Part shown: positions 15,450-48,642 of the stretch, in pieces
Layout: every line of letters begins with the position of its first letter
How positions within the stretch are numbered: position 1 is the first letter of the stretch
Origin: Candidatus Hodarchaeota archaeon
GTDB taxonomy: Archaea; Asgardarchaeota; Heimdallarchaeia; Hodarchaeales; Hodarchaeaceae
Reading direction: 5' to 3'
Length of the DNA stretch: 64,000 nt
Assembly (NCBI GenBank): GCA_016839815.1
Contig: JAEOTM010000032.1
Location: 1 to 64,000 of the forward strand
Made by a program: the position numbers and the translations under genes
The notes under the pieces: generated by a model
Told to the model about the DNA's origin: nothing
Databases searched by the model: none
The model's input: the letters and a program-made list of their open reading frames with translations, nothing else

Positions 15450-16238
15450 ATGAAAAAACATCTGCATAATCTCTCTTGGCGTATAATTCCCTACTCTCGA
15501 AATAACGCATATGTCAATATGGGAGTAGACGAAGCAATTTATCAATTATTCAAGGATCATAAGGTCAATACCTTGCGTTTATACAGTTGGGAGCCAAGTA
15601 CTGTGTCGATAGGTCACCATCAATACCTACATGACGAGATAGATCTCTCTATGCTTGAAAAATATAAACTTCAGGTTGTTAGACGTATTTCTGGAGGAGG
15701 GGCTGTTTTTCATGATTCAAGGGGAGAATTAACATACTCCGTTGTAACAACTACGAATCAAGTAGCAAGTACATCTGTTGAAGCGAGTTATTACGAAATT
15801 GTAAATCTTTTATTCTCTCCACTTACTAAGATTGGCATATCCATTGACTTTAATCAAATCCATTGTCCAAGTGTTTTTAGCCAAGGTAAAAAAATTTCAG
15901 GTAACGCACAGGCGCGGTCAGGAGATTTAATTCTACAACATGGAACGATTCTGATAGATTACAACCCTGAACTAATGTATTCTGTTCTTAAAGCCCGTCC
16001 AGGAAGAACAAAGACACAAATGGTACAATCTGTATATCAAAAAGTCACTACAATACATGAACAGTTAGAAAAACCTGAGTTTACTCCTCGGACTCTTGCG
16101 GAATTTATTACGAAAGAGCTTCTAGAGAATCATGCTTCTACTTTTTCCTTAGGCCAATTATCCGCTGAGGAAAAACGTCTTTCTAAACAATTAGTAGAAG
16201 AAAGATATAAATCTAAGCAATGGTTATTTCTCAAGTAG
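15450..16238 (+). CDS. lplA: Lipoate-protein ligase A family protein
   Basis: NMGVDEA, VRRISGGGAVFHD, KKISGNAQ, LQHGTI. Confidence 0.88.
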   Translation: MKKHLHNLSWRIIPYSRNNAYVNMGVDEAIYQLFKDHKVNTLRLYSWEPSTVSIGHHQYLHDEIDLSMLEKYKLQVVRRISGGGAVFHDSRGELTYSVVTTTNQVASTSVEASYYEIVNLLFSPLTKIGISIDFNQIHCPSVFSQGKKISGNAQARSGDLILQHGTILIDYNPELMYSVLKARPGRTKTQMVQSVYQKVTTIHEQLEKPEFTPRTLAEFITKELLENHASTFSLGQLSAEEKRLSKQLVEERYKSKQWLFLK

Positions 16239-17211
16239 ATATCACTACGTTCTCCTTAAACTCTTGTTGAAGATAATTCACAAGAAAATTTTCGGGAAAC
16301 AGGTATTTACCATTTATTTGGTATTTAGTCAACTGATGGGGAAATGTTTCCTCAAGATGTGTCACTACTGACTCAGCCACCATTCTAGCCAGAGAAAGGT
16401 CAGATTTCTTATCTGTAATTATTGCACATAGAAGTTTTTCCCGTTTAACCATCACTATAGAATAGTTTTCTGTGATCAGTGAATCTAAACCTCCAGTAGA
16501 CCCCATCATTCCACTTGCAAATTCATTAATGGCGTTTAAAAACCCAGGTACGATATCATTGTCCATAGCTGATTCAGGTTGATTCATAAATAAATGAGAG
16601 ACTATTGGTACTCCTGTACGAAGAAAAAGATAGATTCCTTCAACTTTGATATATTTTTTTGCTATTGAGAGTGCTATTTTTTGAGAAAACCAATTTAAAG
16701 CCCGATCAATATTCATTCCTGTCTTAACAGAAATTTCAAATATCTGGAAGGATCGAGTTGGGCTTTGATGGGGTAATCTCCGTAATTTGACTTTATCAAT
16801 CAACTTAGGTAATTCAATATGTGTCAAATCAGCTTTATTTGCTAGAATCATGAGTGGTGCCTCTGGATTCCATTTTAAGCATTTCCACAGCCATTCCACT
16901 GCAGTATCCAATTTTTCAAGATCATTCGCATCGATCATAAACACGATTCCTTGTGATAGTTTAACGTACTCTTTCCAAAACATTTCTCGGAATCGTTCGT
17001 GTCCCCCCAAATCAAATAGCTGGAAAAGATTGCCTTGAATTTCCAAGATTTCTGTATCTAGTCCTGATGTCGGTACTGTTTTTCCAAATTCTCCGGTTTG
17101 GAGGCGTAATACAAATGAAGTCTTCCCTGCAAACTCTAGCCCGACAATAACTATTGGTATACGTTTTCTTGGAAATCCTTGCATGAATGCCTCAACTCTG
17201 ACATTGCGCAA
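16231..17211 (-). CDS. Arf/Sar1-like small GTPase fused to a C-terminal longin-like domain
   Basis: GLEFAGKT, PTSG, FDLGGH, NKAD, EISVK; then GIYLFLRTGVPI..IVPGFLNAINEFASGM..LDSLITENYSIVM..F. Confidence 0.85.
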   Translation of the reverse strand: MRNVRVEAFMQGFPRKRIPIVIVGLEFAGKTSFVLRLQTGEFGKTVPTSGLDTEILEIQGNLFQLFDLGGHERFREMFWKEYVKLSQGIVFMIDANDLEKLDTAVEWLWKCLKWNPEAPLMILANKADLTHIELPKLIDKVKLRRLPHQSPTRSFQIFEISVKTGMNIDRALNWFSQKIALSIAKKYIKVEGIYLFLRTGVPIVSHLFMNQPESAMDNDIVPGFLNAINEFASGMMGSTGGLDSLITENYSIVMVKREKLLCAIITDKKSDLSLARMVAESVVTHLEETFPHQLTKYQINGKYLFPENFLVNYLQQEFKENVVIST

Positions 17212-41407: not shown

Positions 41408-42088
41408 TTACTCCATTTTCCATACACTTTCCCCATGCCAATCCCGGATCCTCTTGATAGGACTACCAGCATAAATTGAATTTGGTTCTAAAACCCTATT
41501 TGCTGGAATCACTGAATTACTGGCAACAATAACGTTATCCTTAATTGTAACACCTGGTAAAATGATTGTTCCAGCACCAATTGTGCAGTTTTTTCCAATG
41601 ACAATTCGTTTGCGGAAAAGTTCTCCTTGAGATATAGCATGTGCCCCAATAATACAACCAGTTCCGATAGAAGTATTTTCTCCAATTTCCATTAATTCAA
41701 CATCCCAGATTCGAGTATAAATGGCTGCTCCCTTACCAATTTTAGCCCCAAATAATTTATAGAAAAGTGAGGGGAACATCTGGTTAATAAACAGTTTATT
41801 GACAAAATAATAAGCAGTATCTGCAGCTGTCATACCGACTCCCCATAACAGTTGATCTCGACCCGTCAAGATTCCTTCTTCTTTCTTCATAAACAATCTC
41901 GCTAGCTTATGAATGATTGCTAAGATGAACAATCCTGTGAATAATGTTAGAGTAATTGCACAGATGATTGACAAATACAGATTATTTACGAATAATCCAT
42001 TGTAAAAGAGATCAAAATACCATACACCGATGAAAATTACTGATGCTAGTAACACAATCTGAAAGAAAACCCAGGTAACCATATTCAT
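41408..42088 (-). CDS. Membrane-anchored hexapeptide-repeat (LbH) acyltransferase
   Basis: 2 TM segments, then FGAKIGKG, IGENTSIG, IGKNCTIGAGTIILPGVTI, AGSP. ATG at 42088 (track start 42103). Confidence 0.85.
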   Translation of the reverse strand: MNMVTWVFFQIVLLASVIFIGVWYFDLFYNGLFVNNLYLSIICAITLTLFTGLFILAIIHKLARLFMKKEEGILTGRDQLLWGVGMTAADTAYYFVNKLFINQMFPSLFYKLFGAKIGKGAAIYTRIWDVELMEIGENTSIGTGCIIGAHAISQGELFRKRIVIGKNCTIGAGTIILPGVTIKDNVIVASNSVIPANRVLEPNSIYAGSPIKRIRDWHGESVWKME

Positions 42089-42092
42089 ACCC

Positions 42093-43751
42093 TTAGATTT
42101 CAATGTTTGTTGAAGGAGATAGATGACCGAAGACCTCTTCTGCGATATCTACAGCTCCATCGAACACACTGCGTGCTCCATTCCAAGTCGCTAGGTGTTT
42201 ACCGTACTGAGCACAGAATTGAATTTGGAATTCATGCAATGCCTTTTTTAATTCCATATCATGTTTATTACAGAAAATGACGGTAGAAATTCCTGTATCT
42301 TTATCTTTATCAGTAATAATGAAGTGATTACCATGTCTGACCAGATTCAAGTTACCTTTTTCCCTCATCATTTCAGACATAAAGGAAGAAACAGCAGTAA
42401 GTGCTCCTGAAAGTAGTGTGAGCTCAATATCGGTATCTAGTTTTTGTTGAAATGCATAATCAAATAGTGGTAAGCCACCCTCTTCAATCACCATGAGTAA
42501 CGTGAAGTCTAATGGTTCATAACTATCAGTTGTCCAAAATAGAGGAAATGCAGCGAAAACCGCTAAGATAATCAAAATGTATGTCACGTAATCTAAATTC
42601 TCGAGGAGTGGAACTAAGAACCAATGGCCAACACCATACCCTGCACCAAGTCCTAAAGCTAGCGATATAAATCCTAGTGCAAAATATCGTCCTAAACCAT
42701 CACGAGGAGAAAGATCAGCCCACAAAGAAGAATCTAATGTAGGATGGATTAGTGCAAAAGAAAATCCGATCGTTAATGCTGAAATGAAGAAACTTGCTTC
42801 AGATTTTTCGAGACCTAGTATCATTGCGGAAAAAACAATGCCATATATCGCTAATACGATTAAATTCTTCCGACCAATTTTATCAGCTAGAAATCCAGCT
42901 GGTATAACTAACAGCAAATCACCAACTAATACCAAAACCCAAAAAAGTTGATCTACACTAAATTGCAGTTCCCCAAGGGCGGGAAATTTAAAGGTTTCTG
43001 TTATATCCAACACTGATCCTATTAAAGGGAATATAGCTATAGAGATTCCAAGCATACAGTACAATAAGAAATGAGTACTCAAATATGCTTGGACAGACCG
43101 ACGACCAACAATTTTCGTAAATTTGGTTGGCCATGCATCAGGTACCCAGTATTTCAAATCACGGGAGAGTAAAAAGAATACTAAAGTCAAGATGAGTCCC
43201 AATACCCCAATTCCTGGAATGATTACAACCCAGCTATTACTTAATGGATCAGTTTCAGCAAAATCAGAGGAAATCTCATTTCCAATTATAATACTCACAA
43301 GTACTAAGATAATAAATAGAAAAATTGCAGTAGAATATGTTTTTCCGCGTGAAGCTGAATTAGTTAATCCTGCAAATAGTGTCCCACTGCTTGTAAGGAG
43401 AATAGCAAAGGAAAATGCTAATCCGACCAGTGAAACAGAAAATAAGATAGCTGAATTAATAAAAACAATGAATAACGTTGAGGTTATTGATGCACCTAAC
43501 ATACCAATCATAATCCCCTTCTTCAGAAATTCAGGATGTGAATCAAGATAATGTCCTGTGAAATAAAGGACTAGAATCACGAGAAGAAGAAGAACGCCTA
43601 ATATTACTATTCCCAAACCCATAAAAGGATTATCATCAGATTGTTCGACATAATCTAATATTTCGAAAGAATAAATCAATAATAGAGTAGCTGCTAAGCA
43701 CCATGTGAATGTACTGGGTATTATAATGAGGAAAAATCGTTTTACATCCAT
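42093..43751 (-). CDS. MFS transporter fused to a C-terminal longin-like domain
   Basis: About 12 TM segments with GHYLD and GFLADKIGRK; C-terminal ~135 aa LMVIEEGGLPLF..LLSGALTAVSSFMSEM..F..QY..WNG..F. ATG at 43751 (track start 43838). Confidence 0.85.
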   Translation of the reverse strand: MDVKRFFLIIIPSTFTWCLAATLLLIYSFEILDYVEQSDDNPFMGLGIVILGVLLLLVILVLYFTGHYLDSHPEFLKKGIMIGMLGASITSTLFIVFINSAILFSVSLVGLAFSFAILLTSSGTLFAGLTNSASRGKTYSTAIFLFIILVLVSIIIGNEISSDFAETDPLSNSWVVIIPGIGVLGLILTLVFFLLSRDLKYWVPDAWPTKFTKIVGRRSVQAYLSTHFLLYCMLGISIAIFPLIGSVLDITETFKFPALGELQFSVDQLFWVLVLVGDLLLVIPAGFLADKIGRKNLIVLAIYGIVFSAMILGLEKSEASFFISALTIGFSFALIHPTLDSSLWADLSPRDGLGRYFALGFISLALGLGAGYGVGHWFLVPLLENLDYVTYILIILAVFAAFPLFWTTDSYEPLDFTLLMVIEEGGLPLFDYAFQQKLDTDIELTLLSGALTAVSSFMSEMMREKGNLNLVRHGNHFIITDKDKDTGISTVIFCNKHDMELKKALHEFQIQFCAQYGKHLATWNGARSVFDGAVDIAEEVFGHLSPSTNIEI

Positions 43752-43970
43752 TTTAACATATCCTGTAGAATTATACTTAGTTAGGGTGTGGATCTCAAGC
43801 TTTGGTAAGGATTTCAAAGCTCTAGCAATAATTATCAAAATAGGGTAAAGAGATTAAATCCTTTATTCAGCTTTCTCACATTATACTAACACCTTAAATA
43901 AACCTCATCGAAGCATATTAGGACAAGAATCTTTTTGGAAAAAGGATTTTTACTCAAGATAATTACAGGG

Positions 43971-45035
43971 ATGCCGAATCAATTGACAATAAATAACTAT
44001 TTCACTCTACTCTCCGAACTTGTGAATATTCCAGGACCTGTTGGACGAGAGGAGAAAGTTCAACAGTTTTTAGCCAATAAATGGAAAGCTTCTGGTCTTG
44101 ATGTTGAATTAGATAGAATTGGAAATTTATATGGACGTCTGAATGGAGAAGGTCCGCATTGGGCAATTGTATCTCATGCTGACACAATTGGTTTTCTTGT
44201 GCAACAGATACTTTCTAATGGTTTCTTGAAAGTGGCATTTAATACTGCTGCAACTACACCCGATGCCCGTTTCCTCGCAGGATCCAAGATTCGATTCCTA
44301 ACCAATGAATCTCAAGATATATTCGGTTATTTTGGATTGAGAAGTGGTCATCTTGCAGGAATTGAGGGGAAGAAAAAACCAATATTATTTGATGAAATGT
44401 TTATTGATCTTGGAACAAACTCAATTGAAGAAGTGAAGAAATTAGGAATTGATATCGGGACCCCTGCTGTTTTTAACTCTCCTATATATCAAATTCAAAA
44501 CAATATTGTAGGCCCTTCAATGGATAACCGAATTGGAGGTACTATTCAGACTATTCTTGTCGCCAATTTGATGGAAAAAGGACTCCGCCCAAATTTGACT
44601 TTGATTTCAACTGTTCAAGAGGAGATTGGAATGAAAGGAGCTGCAGCAGCTGCAAAAAATGGAGAATATGATGGAGTGGTAAACCTAGATGTAGGATTAA
44701 CAGGAGATATCCCGCCTTCCAAGCAAGACTACGTACCAACTAAACTCGGACATGGACCTATTCTTGTTGTAAAAGACTTTTCAATCCATTATTCTCATTC
44801 ATTATTAACATCACTTGCTGAGGTTGCTTTACATGAGAAAATTCCATTCCAGAAAGCAGTGTTCAAAAATTATAACACTGATGGAATGCATTTCTTTATG
44901 AATGGATTCCCTACAATTACTGTTTCCATACCATGTAGATATACTCATACAAACTTCGAAACGATTAATCTTTCTGACGTTCAAAATACGTTAACTTTAC
45001 TAGAATCATTACTTTCATTATCAGTAAATGTGTAA
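43971..45035 (+). CDS. M42 family (TET-like) aminopeptidase
   Basis: GPVGRE, SHADTIG, MDNRIG, QEEIG, LDVG, PCRYTHT. Confidence 0.9.
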   Translation: MPNQLTINNYFTLLSELVNIPGPVGREEKVQQFLANKWKASGLDVELDRIGNLYGRLNGEGPHWAIVSHADTIGFLVQQILSNGFLKVAFNTAATTPDARFLAGSKIRFLTNESQDIFGYFGLRSGHLAGIEGKKKPILFDEMFIDLGTNSIEEVKKLGIDIGTPAVFNSPIYQIQNNIVGPSMDNRIGGTIQTILVANLMEKGLRPNLTLISTVQEEIGMKGAAAAAKNGEYDGVVNLDVGLTGDIPPSKQDYVPTKLGHGPILVVKDFSIHYSHSLLTSLAEVALHEKIPFQKAVFKNYNTDGMHFFMNGFPTITVSIPCRYTHTNFETINLSDVQNTLTLLESLLSLSVNV

Positions 45036-46761
45036 ACAAGAATCGTGTGTGTCCACTGTGAATCAAAAAAACGTAATCCTTGTCAAACTGGGAGGAAGTC
45101 TAATAACCTATAAACAGGATGAGAATCGAATTAAAGAGTACATATTAGCTATTGAACAATTTCGCTGCGGTACGGCTTCATTAGAAGAATTAACTTCAAC
45201 AATATCCAACCTTCTAAATACAAGTACACTTAAAGAAATATTTAGAACCCTCAACATCTATATACAGAGTAATCCCTCCTCGAAAGTTATCGTTATACAT
45301 GGAGCTGGATCAATAGGCCATTCTCTTGTTTTACATCTCTTAAAGACTGAAACTGACCTAGAATTTGTCTATCCTCTAATCAAACTTGCTGTCTCCATTC
45401 AGAACCACTTAATTACTGGAATCGGTATACAACTAGGTCTAAATGCTATTTCACTCTCATCTCATCAGCTTATGCTTGGATATCCTACTGATAAAACATC
45501 TTCTCCTCGTATCGATGCAACTGATTTATCAACTTTGGAAACACTGATTCTGAACACTGACTCTGTTCCTATTTTCTTCGGGGATGTTGGACTTACCCAA
45601 AAATCACATGTGGATTTACCTGGTGAATGGAAAGTCTTTTCGGGTGATTTAATACCAACTGCACTTGTTCGGAGTTTTAAAACCTTACAAATTGATAAAG
45701 CAATCTTTCTAACTCAAGTACCAGGAAAAATGACTGGAATTTATTCAAAAGATCCTGATCTAGCTGATGCACAATTTATTAGACGCATCGAAGTTGGATC
45801 AAAAGCCAATCGGTATTATAATGTAGAGAATTCACAAATTCATTTTCACAAAGATGCTACTCAGTCAAAATATGATGTAACTGATGCAATGGAAGGAAAA
45901 TTAAGGAATTTGATTGATTTAGCGCATCAGAATGTTACTAGCTGGGTAATTGGATTTGAGGAGTTTGATAAAGCCCTACGGGGAGAACTCGTCGGAACAA
46001 GAGTTCTTCCAGAAAAAGATCTCAATATCAAGGCTGTTTTTCTAGGTAGAGGAGATGCATTTAGTTCAGGTGGATTTAAAAGTGCCTCTATTTTACTAGA
46101 ATTTCAAAATAAAACTATTTTGTTAGATTGTGGTCCTCATACACTGCAAGCTTTGAAAGCTTCTGGAAGAAAATCAACAGAAATTGATTGGATATTAATT
46201 TCGCACTTCCACGGAGACCATTTTGGAGGTATTCCATATTTTCTCTTAGAATCAACATTTCAACACCAGAGAAACAAGCCATTGACGATTATTGGCCCTC
46301 CAGGAATCGAAAAGGTTGTGAACGACCTTTTTACATCATTGTATAAGCGTGAATCATCAAAAACACGCCCATTTCCCATTAAATATAGGGAAATTACACC
46401 TGCTAAACCTTATGACGAAAATGAAATTATAATAACAGCGTATCAAATGAATCATACTCCCGAGGCACAAGGTTATAGAATAAAAAGTAATTCGAGTTTT
46501 ATTGCTTATACCGGGGATACTGGATGGACTGAAAACTTGATTCCTCTAATTTCTGATGCACAACTCGCAATTCTTGAGTGTAATTTCTACCAGAGTCAAT
46601 TTGAAACCCATTTGAATTGGCAGGAAATTCTGAATGTGTATCATCTTGCTGAAAAAACTGCAATAATACACCTTGGTGCAGAGATGGTTGCAGAAATTGA
46701 TAACCTAGTTGGTAAAAAGAATCTTTATATTCCCTTAGAAGGTCAAACTATCAGAATCTAG
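45028..46761 (+). CDS. Isopentenyl phosphate kinase-like domain fused to RNase Z-like metallo-beta-lactamase hydrolase
   Basis: VKLGGSLIT, HGAGSIGH, PIFFGDV, SGD, DVTDAMEGKL; then FLGRGDAF, LLDCG, SHFHGDH, YTGDT, LEC, IHL. Confidence 0.85.
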   Translation: MCKQESCVSTVNQKNVILVKLGGSLITYKQDENRIKEYILAIEQFRCGTASLEELTSTISNLLNTSTLKEIFRTLNIYIQSNPSSKVIVIHGAGSIGHSLVLHLLKTETDLEFVYPLIKLAVSIQNHLITGIGIQLGLNAISLSSHQLMLGYPTDKTSSPRIDATDLSTLETLILNTDSVPIFFGDVGLTQKSHVDLPGEWKVFSGDLIPTALVRSFKTLQIDKAIFLTQVPGKMTGIYSKDPDLADAQFIRRIEVGSKANRYYNVENSQIHFHKDATQSKYDVTDAMEGKLRNLIDLAHQNVTSWVIGFEEFDKALRGELVGTRVLPEKDLNIKAVFLGRGDAFSSGGFKSASILLEFQNKTILLDCGPHTLQALKASGRKSTEIDWILISHFHGDHFGGIPYFLLESTFQHQRNKPLTIIGPPGIEKVVNDLFTSLYKRESSKTRPFPIKYREITPAKPYDENEIIITAYQMNHTPEAQGYRIKSNSSFIAYTGDTGWTENLIPLISDAQLAILECNFYQSQFETHLNWQEILNVYHLAEKTAIIHLGAEMVAEIDNLVGKKNLYIPLEGQTIRI

Positions 46762-47306: not shown

Positions 47307-47867
47307 ATGACAAGCAAAGAAATCAAGCATGTATTAAAAATACTGCTCCTTGGGGATGGAGCCGTCGGAAAAACTTCATTAATTCTAAGATTCATTGAAA
47401 ATAAGTTTAAAGATGAATATTCTGTAAGTTTGGGAGTGGATTTTCTCACCAAAACCATTAATTTCATTGATGAAGATGATATTAAGCGAGTGGTATCCTT
47501 ACAAGTGTGGGATATAGCAGGTCAAGCGAGACATGTGTCTTACTCACACCTCTACCTCAAAGGTGCATTAGGAGCGTTTTATGTATTTGATTTAACCAGA
47601 AAAGACACTTTGGCGCAGATTCAGAATCGCTGGCAACTCCAAGCTCTCAAGGCATCACCTAATCACATTGGTATTCTTATTGGAAATAAAGCGGATTTAA
47701 CTAAAGAGAGAGCGGTTCCTGAATCGCAATTGAAGCAGATTATTGATAGTATGCATGTTCTTGAATTTATAGAAACGTCTGCAAAGACAGGTAGAAATGT
47801 TAACAAGGCTTTTCAAAAATTAACCACAGAAATCCTGCGTGTGAAACCAAAAAAATTCCTGAAGTGA
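47307..47867 (+). CDS. Rab-like small GTPase
   Basis: GDGAVGKT, SLGVDF, WDIAGQ, NKAD, ETSAK; basic C-terminus. Confidence 0.93.
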   Translation: MTSKEIKHVLKILLLGDGAVGKTSLILRFIENKFKDEYSVSLGVDFLTKTINFIDEDDIKRVVSLQVWDIAGQARHVSYSHLYLKGALGAFYVFDLTRKDTLAQIQNRWQLQALKASPNHIGILIGNKADLTKERAVPESQLKQIIDSMHVLEFIETSAKTGRNVNKAFQKLTTEILRVKPKKFLK

Positions 47868-47871
47868 GCTC

Positions 47872-48642
47872 ATGTCCCCTTTAACCGAATTTAAAGCCGT
47901 GAAAGCATTTTTCATCTTTGAAAAAGATCAAGGCACTACATTATTCACCCGATCCTATGAACGGAGTTCAACTGCACCCGATGCTCATCTTGTTGTCGCA
48001 TTCTTAACAGCTATGTTTTCTTTTGCAAAAACAACATCACTTAGTGACTTAAGAGTTGTGGATATGACCGATATTCGATTCTCATTTATTGAAAAAAATA
48101 GATTAATCTTCGCAGTTCTAGTCTCCCCTCTTGTTTCACCTCTAGATATTCAGTTCAAGCTATCCACTATAGCGAGCTTGTTTTTCTCGGATTATGGAAA
48201 TGAGCTAGATTCAATTGATATTGTTGACACAGAAATGTTTGATGATTTCAATGACTCAGTTGATGAGATTTTTGGTGGAGAGACACGCCAAATGCTTAAA
48301 TCATCGAAAAATGCAGCTCTATTCTACTTGAAGAAATTAGTATCCAAAGAAGAGACAGGAGCTCGAGGTGCGATGATTTTATCTTTTACAGGTGATATTC
48401 TCCTTGAATATAAAATGGATCAGCCCCGAATGGCTGCTGCTATTCGTATTTTGAACGTAGGAACCTATATGACCAATCTTCGATACTTAGTTGTTGCTTC
48501 TGAGTCAACTCACCTTGTTGCATATAAAATCAGTGAGGGATTACTACTTGCAGTTGATGGCCACCCATCATACGGTCTTGAGGATCTAGTAGTGAATGTT
48601 TCCGAAACGGTGAAGCAAATAAAGGAAATTATTCCCCATTAA
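47872..48642 (+). CDS. Longin plus roadblock-like two-domain protein
   Basis: FFIFEKDQGTTLF..LVVAFLTAMFSFA..LRVVDM..F..DY..F..F (longin); GARGAMILSFTGDIL..HLVAYKI..LLLAV (roadblock-like). Confidence 0.75.
   Translation: MSPLTEFKAVKAFFIFEKDQGTTLFTRSYERSSTAPDAHLVVAFLTAMFSFAKTTSLSDLRVVDMTDIRFSFIEKNRLIFAVLVSPLVSPLDIQFKLSTIASLFFSDYGNELDSIDIVDTEMFDDFNDSVDEIFGGETRQMLKSSKNAALFYLKKLVSKEETGARGAMILSFTGDILLEYKMDQPRMAAAIRILNVGTYMTNLRYLVVASESTHLVAYKISEGLLLAVDGHPSYGLEDLVVNVSETVKQIKEIIPH

Follow-up and report, generated by a model that had tools for sequence, protein, structure and literature searches.

A conserved fusion of a major facilitator superfamily core with a C-terminal longin-fold domain in Asgard archaea

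We analyzed a 64,000-nucleotide stretch of the genome of a Candidatus Hodarchaeota archaeon (assembly GCA_016839815.1, contig JAEOTM010000032.1, positions 1 to 64,000; hereafter "the window"), which encodes, at positions 42093-43751 of the reverse strand, a protein joining a major facilitator superfamily (MFS) core to a C-terminal domain of the longin fold. The fusion is real and conserved, and it is apparently an undescribed combination of known kinds of domain. The reading that we tentatively prefer, with a confidence slightly short of even, is that the protein is a working MFS secondary transporter whose longin tail serves as a pairing or docking module and whose substrate, in Hodarchaeales, is probably tied to acyl transfer at the membrane.

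The MFS core and its longin tail

The gene and its parts are as follows.

42093..43751, (-): MFS-longin coding sequence, 552 amino acids plus a TAA stop at 42095-42093 (open reading frame list and translation)
42531..43751, (-): MFS core, residues 1-407, with 12 transmembrane (TM) helices in two six-helix halves (Pfam, AlphaFold2 (AF2) and Foldseek)
42867..42896, (-): MFS motif A, GFLADKIGRK, residues 286-295, in the cytoplasmic TM8-TM9 loop of the C-terminal half
42507..42530, (-): linker TDSYEPLD, residues 408-415, from TM12 to the first longin strand, in conserved columns
42120..42506, (-): longin-fold domain, residues 416-544 (129 amino acids; AF2, VIA-align, Foldseek and profile A3, described below)

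A preliminary description of this DNA, made from the letters and the translated open reading frames (ORFs), had placed a 12-TM MFS core and a soluble domain in a single continuous ORF. The ORF list and the translation bear this out, with an unbroken frame at 42093-43838 (-) and two candidate starts, TTG 43838 and ATG 43751. The latter is favored because homologs begin with M-K-x-K at the same column of a 31-sequence alignment, to which the residue-level conservation given below also refers. The G+C content is flat along the window, at ~36%, and so provides no hint of a foreign insert at this gene.

The claimed MFS core is confirmed by three methods. Pfam MFS_1 matches the 552-residue protein above threshold (41.7 bits versus a cut-off of 33.4, E 9.3e-11), and the AF2 model of the full-length protein, computed from the 31-sequence alignment (pLDDT 83.3, pTM 0.82), displays 12 long helices and a small hairpin in the loop following TM7. 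A Foldseek comparison of this model with the PDB returned 432 matches at E<=1e-3; among the matches listed, 44 of 44 are MFS-fold transporters, including LmrP (6t1z; E 2.3e-9, TMt 0.76) and VMAT1/2 (TMt up to 0.81). One further entry, 9d7x (735 amino acids), apparently aligned over all 552 columns, was set aside on account of a root-mean-square deviation (rmsd) of 9.9 Å and an extra length that probably reflects an engineered fusion; the papers citing it concern the human vesicular polyamine transporter.

The motif A of the preliminary description is genuine and nearly invariant (G286, D290, G293 and K295 without exception, R294 nearly so), but it resides in the TM8-TM9 loop and not in the canonical TM2-TM3 loop. 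Pfam aligns residues 229-410 to the N-terminal half of the MFS_1 model because the intact motif sits there. Inside predicted helices, D278 (helix 266-292, TM8) as well as H336 and D340 (helix 318-340, TM10) are conserved charged or polar residues; these three, together with a loop reading W-A-D-L-S-P-R-D-G-L-G-R-Y, are invariant or nearly so, which argues for a functioning carrier rather than a dead scaffold. Judged from these conserved positions, the core is probably a functioning, ion-coupled carrier. We therefore consider it very improbable that the 12-TM body is non-transporting and a mere membrane anchor for the longin domain, even though the degenerate motif A of the N-terminal half, the very low sequence similarity to characterized MFS proteins and the several related ORFs that fall under the MFS_1 cut-off would suit such a degenerate scaffold. 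Beside the residues and the loop just named, the motif A of the C-terminal half is intact and the 12-helix fold is kept at 55-90% identity over many genomes, whereas a plain anchor would need no 12 conserved helices.

Canonical MFS proteins have both termini in the cytoplasm. Counted by eye on the AF2 helices, lysine and arginine residues in the predicted loops number 17 inside versus 2 outside; this places both termini, hence the longin tail, in the cytoplasm, as had been proposed.

The last 145 residues modeled alone (AF2, 89-sequence alignment) gave a pLDDT of 89.6 and a pTM of 0.84. DSSP assigns to this model the elements E9-15, E21-26, H37-55, E63-66, E69-75, E82-87, H92-115, H120-123 and H126-134. 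The resulting order, strand-strand-helix-strand-strand-strand followed by three helices and without an N-terminal helix, is that of longin domains, unlike that of roadblock domains. In a VIA-align comparison with 48,161 PDB representatives, the top match was the longin domain of VAMP7 (4afi_B, Z 13.0, 120 residues, 2.9 Å), and good matches were also obtained with Sec22 (3egd_C, Z 12.9), TRAPP Bet5 (3cue_C, Z 12.2), synbindin (Z 12.2), Mon1-Ccz1 (Z 11.2), the SRX domain of SR-alpha (Z 11.1) and a Lokiarchaeota longin (8yqg_B, Z 10.5 over 130 residues). Longins thus score Z 11-13 over 116-135 residues, versus Z 8-11 over just 91-107 residues for roadblocks (MglB, LAMTOR and Asgard proteins). Foldseek likewise retrieved TRAPP Bet5 (2j3t_C, E 1.5e-5, TM-score 0.68-0.70). 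The longin fold announced in the preliminary description is hence upheld by topology and by both structural searches.

At the sequence level, a Pfam scan of the tail returned no match at E<=1, hence none to a longin family (Longin, Sybindin, Fuz_longin_1, Clat_adaptor_s), and a PDB sequence search returned nothing at E<=10. Relatives of the tail have sub-threshold Pfam matches (Fuz_longin_1, E 1e-3 to 6e-3; Sybindin, E 2e-3 to 9e-3; Robl_LC7, E 1.5e-4). With a longin topology and no match to a curated sequence family, the tail is assigned to the fold and not to a named family. The eukaryotic longins (SNARE type: VAMP7, Sec22b and Ykt6; GTPase-platform type: Bet5/TRAPPC1, Trs23/TRAPPC4, Mon1-Ccz1, SRX and Fuzzy) share with it the fold and the order of strands and helices (rmsd 2.9-4.0 Å and Foldseek TM-score 0.63-0.70 over the lengths and Z-scores given above), but only 9-18% identity. 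The setting also differs, since the MFS tail is C-terminal to 12 TM helices, whereas in SNARE proteins the longin precedes a SNARE helix and one anchor, and longins of guanine nucleotide exchange factors (GEFs) are soluble subunits.

Across 27 orthologs, the tail is the best-conserved large region, with a mean identity of 70% versus 66% for the C-terminal and 56% for the N-terminal half of the MFS core. The first longin helix holds a cluster of invariant residues (L444, L446, G449, L451, A453, F457 and E460). The linker averages 76% identity over the same orthologs, with D409, P413 and L414 invariant, and the longin domain begins ~8-10 residues past TM12.

This short, conserved linker, and the position of motif A in a C-half loop close to the exit of the tail, would fit an intramolecular regulator: docked against the cytoplasmic side of the MFS core that carries it, close to the motif-A loops, the longin domain would stabilize one conformational state with no outside partner. 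A precedent is E. coli YajR, which, like the MFS-longin protein, is a 12-TM MFS protein with a small C-terminal soluble domain, and whose structure (3wdo) ranks third in the whole-protein Foldseek search (518 aligned columns, rmsd 9.1 Å). Its YAM domain, reportedly ~65 residues long and of a different fold, is said to have been proposed to stabilize one conformational state; the two tails are without sequence relationship. We nevertheless regard such self-docking as quite unlikely, since the tail family also occurs on non-MFS and single-pass membrane proteins, where docking of this kind cannot apply, and as stand-alone copies.

Distribution of the fusion and of the tail family

A word-indexed protein search returned 57 clusters, mostly full-length and 55-90% identical to the window protein, whose source metagenome-assembled genomes are mostly labeled Heimdallarchaeota or Hodarchaeales (B3_Heim, 86% identity). 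Full-length orthologs occur in 20 of 21 sampled genomes of the host family, and the protein is also matched in one of two genomes of a sister family, with 1-4 matches per positive genome, frequently in tandem; at E<=1e-20, 278 other Asgard genomes lack a match. Since over 50 independent protein clusters and the 20 related genomes display the identical architecture, an artefact of assembly or a frameshift was rejected, and the possibility, raised in the preliminary description, that the fusion is unique to this assembly is thereby removed.

More divergent proteins of the same layout exist in two other Asgard families. All 10 ORFs sampled there (~520-560 amino acids, same tail) have an MFS_1 or a Sybindin match, often sub-threshold: MFS_1 matches eight of them, two above the cut-off, and Sybindin weakly matches the tail of three. 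The BLASTP alignments of the window protein with two such ORFs, at 24% identity, cover 293 residues (E 3e-17) and 314 residues (E 1e-10) and proceed contiguously across TM7-12 and the tail. These ORFs indicate that the architecture is old and extends well beyond Hodarchaeales.

Our full-text literature search found no description of any MFS-longin protein, in agreement with the statement of the preliminary description that no such fusion has been characterized; the architecture is, however, phylum-wide and no peculiarity of this genome.

Two MFS-longin proteins are encoded in this genome, the paralog lying away from the window (C101:39172-40860); in most relatives the two genes are in tandem. 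In a maximum-likelihood tree, the tandem pairs arose by independent duplications in Hodarchaeales and in one other family (clade supports 98/96 and 100/100). An ancient heterodimeric pair of MFS-longin proteins was accordingly rejected; the independent duplications are compatible with selection for paired copies.

The tail itself belongs to a much wider family. The preliminary description had recognized the same pattern in two other longin-like domains of the window, and a profile built from relatives of the tail (A3) recovers both, at 16294-16641 (E 9.5e-13) and 47902-48276 (E 6.7e-11), together with the tail at 42120-42509 (E 2.5e-45); pairwise BLASTP matches among the window domains are weak (E 7e-6 and 0.06). 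The profile matches 198 of 201 Asgard genomes, usually many times each. An exhaustive phmmer search with the tail returned 215 clusters at E<=1e-3, and in most of the best 150 of these the domain is at or near the C-terminus. The hosts among the phmmer matches listed are multi-pass proteins of 350-380 amino acids, other MFS proteins, proteins of 700-2000 amino acids and stand-alone proteins of 140-160 amino acids. When the word-indexed database was searched with a profile for stand-alone relatives, it yielded mostly fragments of the same family and hence no taxonomic range, and a look-up in a protein atlas provided sub-0.9 leads only, to ~143-residue hypothetical proteins of Methanobacteriota, Thermoplasmatota and Promethearchaeota.

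The profile matches 36 times in the genome under study (4.24 Mb, 206 contigs), and about 15 of these matches are in proteins with at least one predicted membrane helix:

Membrane hosts: two MFS proteins; a 10-TM protein without Pfam match; an 856-residue 11-TM protein; four proteins of 365-393 residues with 4-7 TM helices; four single-pass proteins of 898-2046 residues
Other hosts: two TPR proteins; a HerA-like ATPase; a histone-fold protein; two Rag/Gtr-like GTPases; an Arf-like GTPase; soluble longin proteins, including the one encoded from 47872

The MFS-longin protein is therefore one instance of a general theme, that of membrane proteins with a cytoplasmic longin tail.

Several members of this set deserve mention in their own right. 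The 856-residue protein (L031, C149:55398-57965 (+)), with ~11 TM helices, a C-terminal longin tail and no Pfam match, is the second-best match of the profile in this genome (E 6.8e-35), and many of the strongest matches in other Asgard genomes (E ~1e-35 to 1e-37) lie in frames of ~720-870 amino acids. Its gene converges, with ~40 nt between the 3' ends, on that of a HerA/DUF87-type ATPase (L042, C149:58007-60622 (-)) with an internal longin-family domain at residues ~507-630. The four single-pass proteins (L033, C50:22520-25213; L043, C78:35736-40160; L045, C23:2498-7093; L046, C33:6154-12291) have a receptor-like layout, with a large, presumably extracellular N-terminal region, one TM helix near the C-terminus and a longin tail; L033 carries NosD, beta-helix and bacterial Ig-like domains. 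At C83:1706-2788 (+), a 361-residue protein (L048) has a histone fold (CBFD_NFYB_HMF, E 7e-8) followed by a longin-family domain. Two divergently transcribed paralogs of ~468 amino acids each (L050, C198:779-2179 (-), and L049, C198:2445-3851 (+)) combine an N-terminal longin-family domain with a Gtr1/RagA-like GTPase. The Arf-family GTPase of the window (16231-17211 (-); Pfam Arf E 6e-32) has the longin-profile domain at its C-terminus (E 9.5e-13), where Pfam also finds a weak match to MAPKK1_Int (roadblock).

Sec23/24, AP-3 or Hrb recognize the longin domains of Sec22, VAMP7 and Ykt6. By analogy, the tail could be an address tag or adaptor handle that marks membrane proteins for a shared cytoplasmic machinery that sorts, clusters or localizes them. 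The two best VIA-align scores belong to structures in which a SNARE longin is in complex with a coat or adaptor fragment, namely VAMP7 with delta-adaptin (4afi) and Sec22 with Sec23/24 (3egd), and an address tag would also fit the presence of the family in nearly all Asgard genomes and on many unrelated membrane proteins of one genome, among them the long single-pass ones. We still find this explanation unlikely. Longins of the SNARE type and of the GEF type lie less than 2 apart in Z-score, a fold similarity that cannot discriminate between them; no coat, adaptor or partner gene was identified; and Tran et al. 2024 (PMC10933270) state that the two isolated Lokiarchaeia showed no internal membrane compartments.

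The acyltransferase and GTPase genes of the neighborhood

Three neighboring genes bear on function.

41408..42103, (-): membrane-anchored acyltransferase of the hexapeptide-repeat (left-handed beta-helix) type, downstream of the MFS-longin gene (Pfam Hexapep, E 2.7e-12)
47307..47867, (+): Rab-like small GTPase (Pfam Ras, E 3.7e-42), on the opposite strand and 3556 bp from the MFS-longin gene
47872..48642, (+): soluble protein whose N-terminal domain is a longin, encoded 4 nt past the Rab-like gene (Fuz_longin_1, E 0.005; profile A3, E 6.7e-11)

The acyltransferase gene starts either at TTG 42103, overlapping the MFS-longin gene by 11 nt, or at ATG 42088, 4 nt past the MFS-longin stop. The acyltransferase has hydrophobic segments at the N-terminus and sub-threshold NCBIfam matches to the Pls/PosA terminal domain, to heptaprenylglyceryl-phosphate O-acetyltransferase and to WcaF. 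Next to the MFS-longin gene, an acyltransferase match is present at 10 of the 11 orthologous loci inspected with 1.5-kb flanks and at 7 of 8 loci of 20 kb; at two of the latter seven (L072 and L073), the adjacent copy is on the opposite strand. From this arrangement, the two genes are predicted to form an operon in Hodarchaeales. The conserved pairing with a membrane-anchored acyltransferase suggests that the Hodarchaeales substrate is probably linked to acyl or acetyl transfer at the membrane; the transporter might, for example, export or flip an acetylated envelope compound or a lipid-linked one. In related genomes, two adjacent acyltransferase paralogs often stand by the MFS-longin gene (L054, L057, L073, L076 and L079), with 40-49% identity to the single copy of the window.

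In the eight Hodarchaeales loci of 20 kb, this pair is part of a syntenic block of ~16 kb, in the order of two ORFs, an aminotransferase, the acyltransferase, the MFS-longin protein, in some cases its paralog and an M42 peptidase, a fusion of an IPK-like amino-acid kinase with a metallo-beta-lactamase, the Rab-like GTPase and the longin protein. The kinase-metallo-beta-lactamase fusion (577 amino acids, window 45028-46761 (+)) is 45-79% identical and syntenic in 7 of the 8 loci, always between the MFS-longin gene or genes and the Rab-like gene.

The Rab-like and longin-protein genes invite the view, already put forward in the preliminary description, of the MFS-longin protein as a GTPase-coupled transceptor, in which the tail, alone or paired, would be a GEF, a GTPase-activating protein or a docking platform for a Rab-, Arf- or Rag-like GTPase. 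That the tail has such a role strikes us as doubtful. Equally doubtful is the mechanism by which, in analogy with SLC38A9-Ragulator-Rag, a substrate-dependent conformation would set the state of the GTPase or the GTPase would gate the transporter. The best structural matches do include longins of GTPase platforms (Bet5, Trs23, Mon1-Ccz1, SR-alpha SRX and Fuzzy), but SNARE- or coat-type longins that are not GTPase regulators (VAMP7, Sec22 and AP sigma) match equally well or better. The fusions of same-profile longins to the Arf-like GTPase of the window and to the two Rag/Gtr-like proteins of C198 provide a hint at the level of the family. As to gene order, at 7 of the 8 Hodarchaeales loci the Rab-like gene and the longin gene that follows it stay only a few kb from the MFS-longin gene; where there is a tandem paralog and no M42 gene, the two units face each other across a shared divergent intergenic region (~170-270 bp at three loci, ~1.6 kb at a fourth). 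The synteny, however, spans ~16 kb of unrelated genes within one family and may be plain collinearity. In the window, no GTPase gene is directly beside the MFS-longin gene, and two unrelated genes intervene before the Rab-like one, while in the two other Asgard families a Rab-like gene is close by at just one of eight loci, 3.3 kb off.

Proximity in the whole genome likewise does not support a specific GTPase link for the membrane-tethered members. Using tblastn, we located 47 small-GTPase loci. Four of the 36 longin-family genes either are GTPase fusions or have a GTPase locus at 500 bp or less, random positions giving 3.7%. The 15 genes for proteins with one or more predicted membrane helices include no such case, and three of them have one of the 47 loci within 5 kb, versus 11% for random positions.

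A proposed pairing module on a transporter

Solved longin and roadblock domains are generally homo- or heterodimeric platforms, and from this generality follows the pairing proposed in the reading that we favor. The tail would pair with a second longin or roadblock domain, which could belong to another copy of the protein, to its genomic paralog or to a soluble longin protein; the resulting platform may regulate the transporter or bring it together with a common cytoplasmic partner, perhaps a small GTPase. The title of PDB entry 8yqg describes a dimeric Lokiarchaeota longin, and Asgard roadblock, longin and TRAPPC3 proteins are described as forming dimers in Tran et al. 2024 (PMC10933270).

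Several findings weigh against this picture. The canonical TM2-TM3 loop of the core retains only G66-x3-D70 of the motif A consensus, G-x3-D-R/K-x-G-R-R/K. Neither a PDB profile search nor NCBIfam assigned an MFS subfamily or a substrate, the core being too divergent: the family profile matched solved structures only marginally (NorA and MFSD10, E 3e-4 to 2e-3, with NorA at 3e-4), and the NCBIfam DHA1 model scored 32.8 bits versus a cut-off of 131. At the eight MFS-longin loci of the two other Asgard families, no acyltransferase match is present, so that the link of the substrate to acyl transfer may hold for Hodarchaeales only. GTPase genes are not enriched near membrane-tethered longins in this genome. 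Finally, the conservation of the first longin helix could be explained by the packing of the fold alone.

Among known systems, the likeness to the sensors Snf3/Rgt2 and to SLC38A9-Ragulator-Rag is conceptual: each would offer an analogy of a protein of transporter fold whose cytoplasmic extension contacts a signaling machinery. Snf3 and Rgt2 are glucose sensors, MFS proteins with a signaling C-terminal tail that for the most part lacks structure. SLC38A9 falls outside the MFS, and its N-terminal tail binds roadblock proteins in trans; Ragulator and the C-terminal domains of the Rag proteins are roadblock-fold relatives of longin.

Closer in origin are the Asgard Roadblock-Longin protein (8yqg) and the MK-D1 roadblocks (9jue and 7yh1), which are of the same superfamily and phylum as the MFS tail. 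The Roadblock/longin superfamily is described as expanded and domain-shuffled in Asgard archaea, with GTPase-longin and GTPase-roadblock fusions, by Tran et al. 2024 (PMC10933270) and by Liu et al. 2020 (bioRxiv 10.1101/2020.10.19.343400), the latter listing 130 Roadblock/longin asCOGs. The Asgard longins and roadblocks described in the relevant passages of these two papers are soluble or fused to GTPases, TRAPPC3/V4R or two-component domains, whereas the present one is on a transporter; supplementary tables aside, the term "MFS" is absent from both main texts, and "transmembrane" and "transporter" from that of Tran et al. An Asgard transporter census (PMC7997004) mentions longin solely in its introduction.

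Longin and roadblock domains, together with small GTPases, are much-discussed eukaryotic signature proteins of Asgard archaea, and the MFS-longin protein bears on what Asgard longins act on in cells without visible endomembranes. A broader proposal, which we hold to be improbable, is that the membrane-tethered longin tails of Asgard archaea are halves of longin-pair platforms that recruit or switch Rab-, Arf- or Rag-like GTPases according to the state of the membrane protein. If true, it would be a prokaryotic forerunner of transporter-to-GTPase nutrient sensing, with the logic of SLC38A9-Ragulator-Rag, or of cargo-to-coat recognition.

A longin domain on a conserved, expressible 12-TM transporter offers a defined membrane anchor point and a bait for Asgard longin partners. 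Should the tail only dimerize or autoregulate the transporter, it would be a new regulatory tail of MFS proteins and a reminder that an Asgard longin need not belong to trafficking machinery. Should a GTPase or a coat-like protein prove to be the partner, the coupling of membrane proteins to longin platforms would predate eukaryotes.

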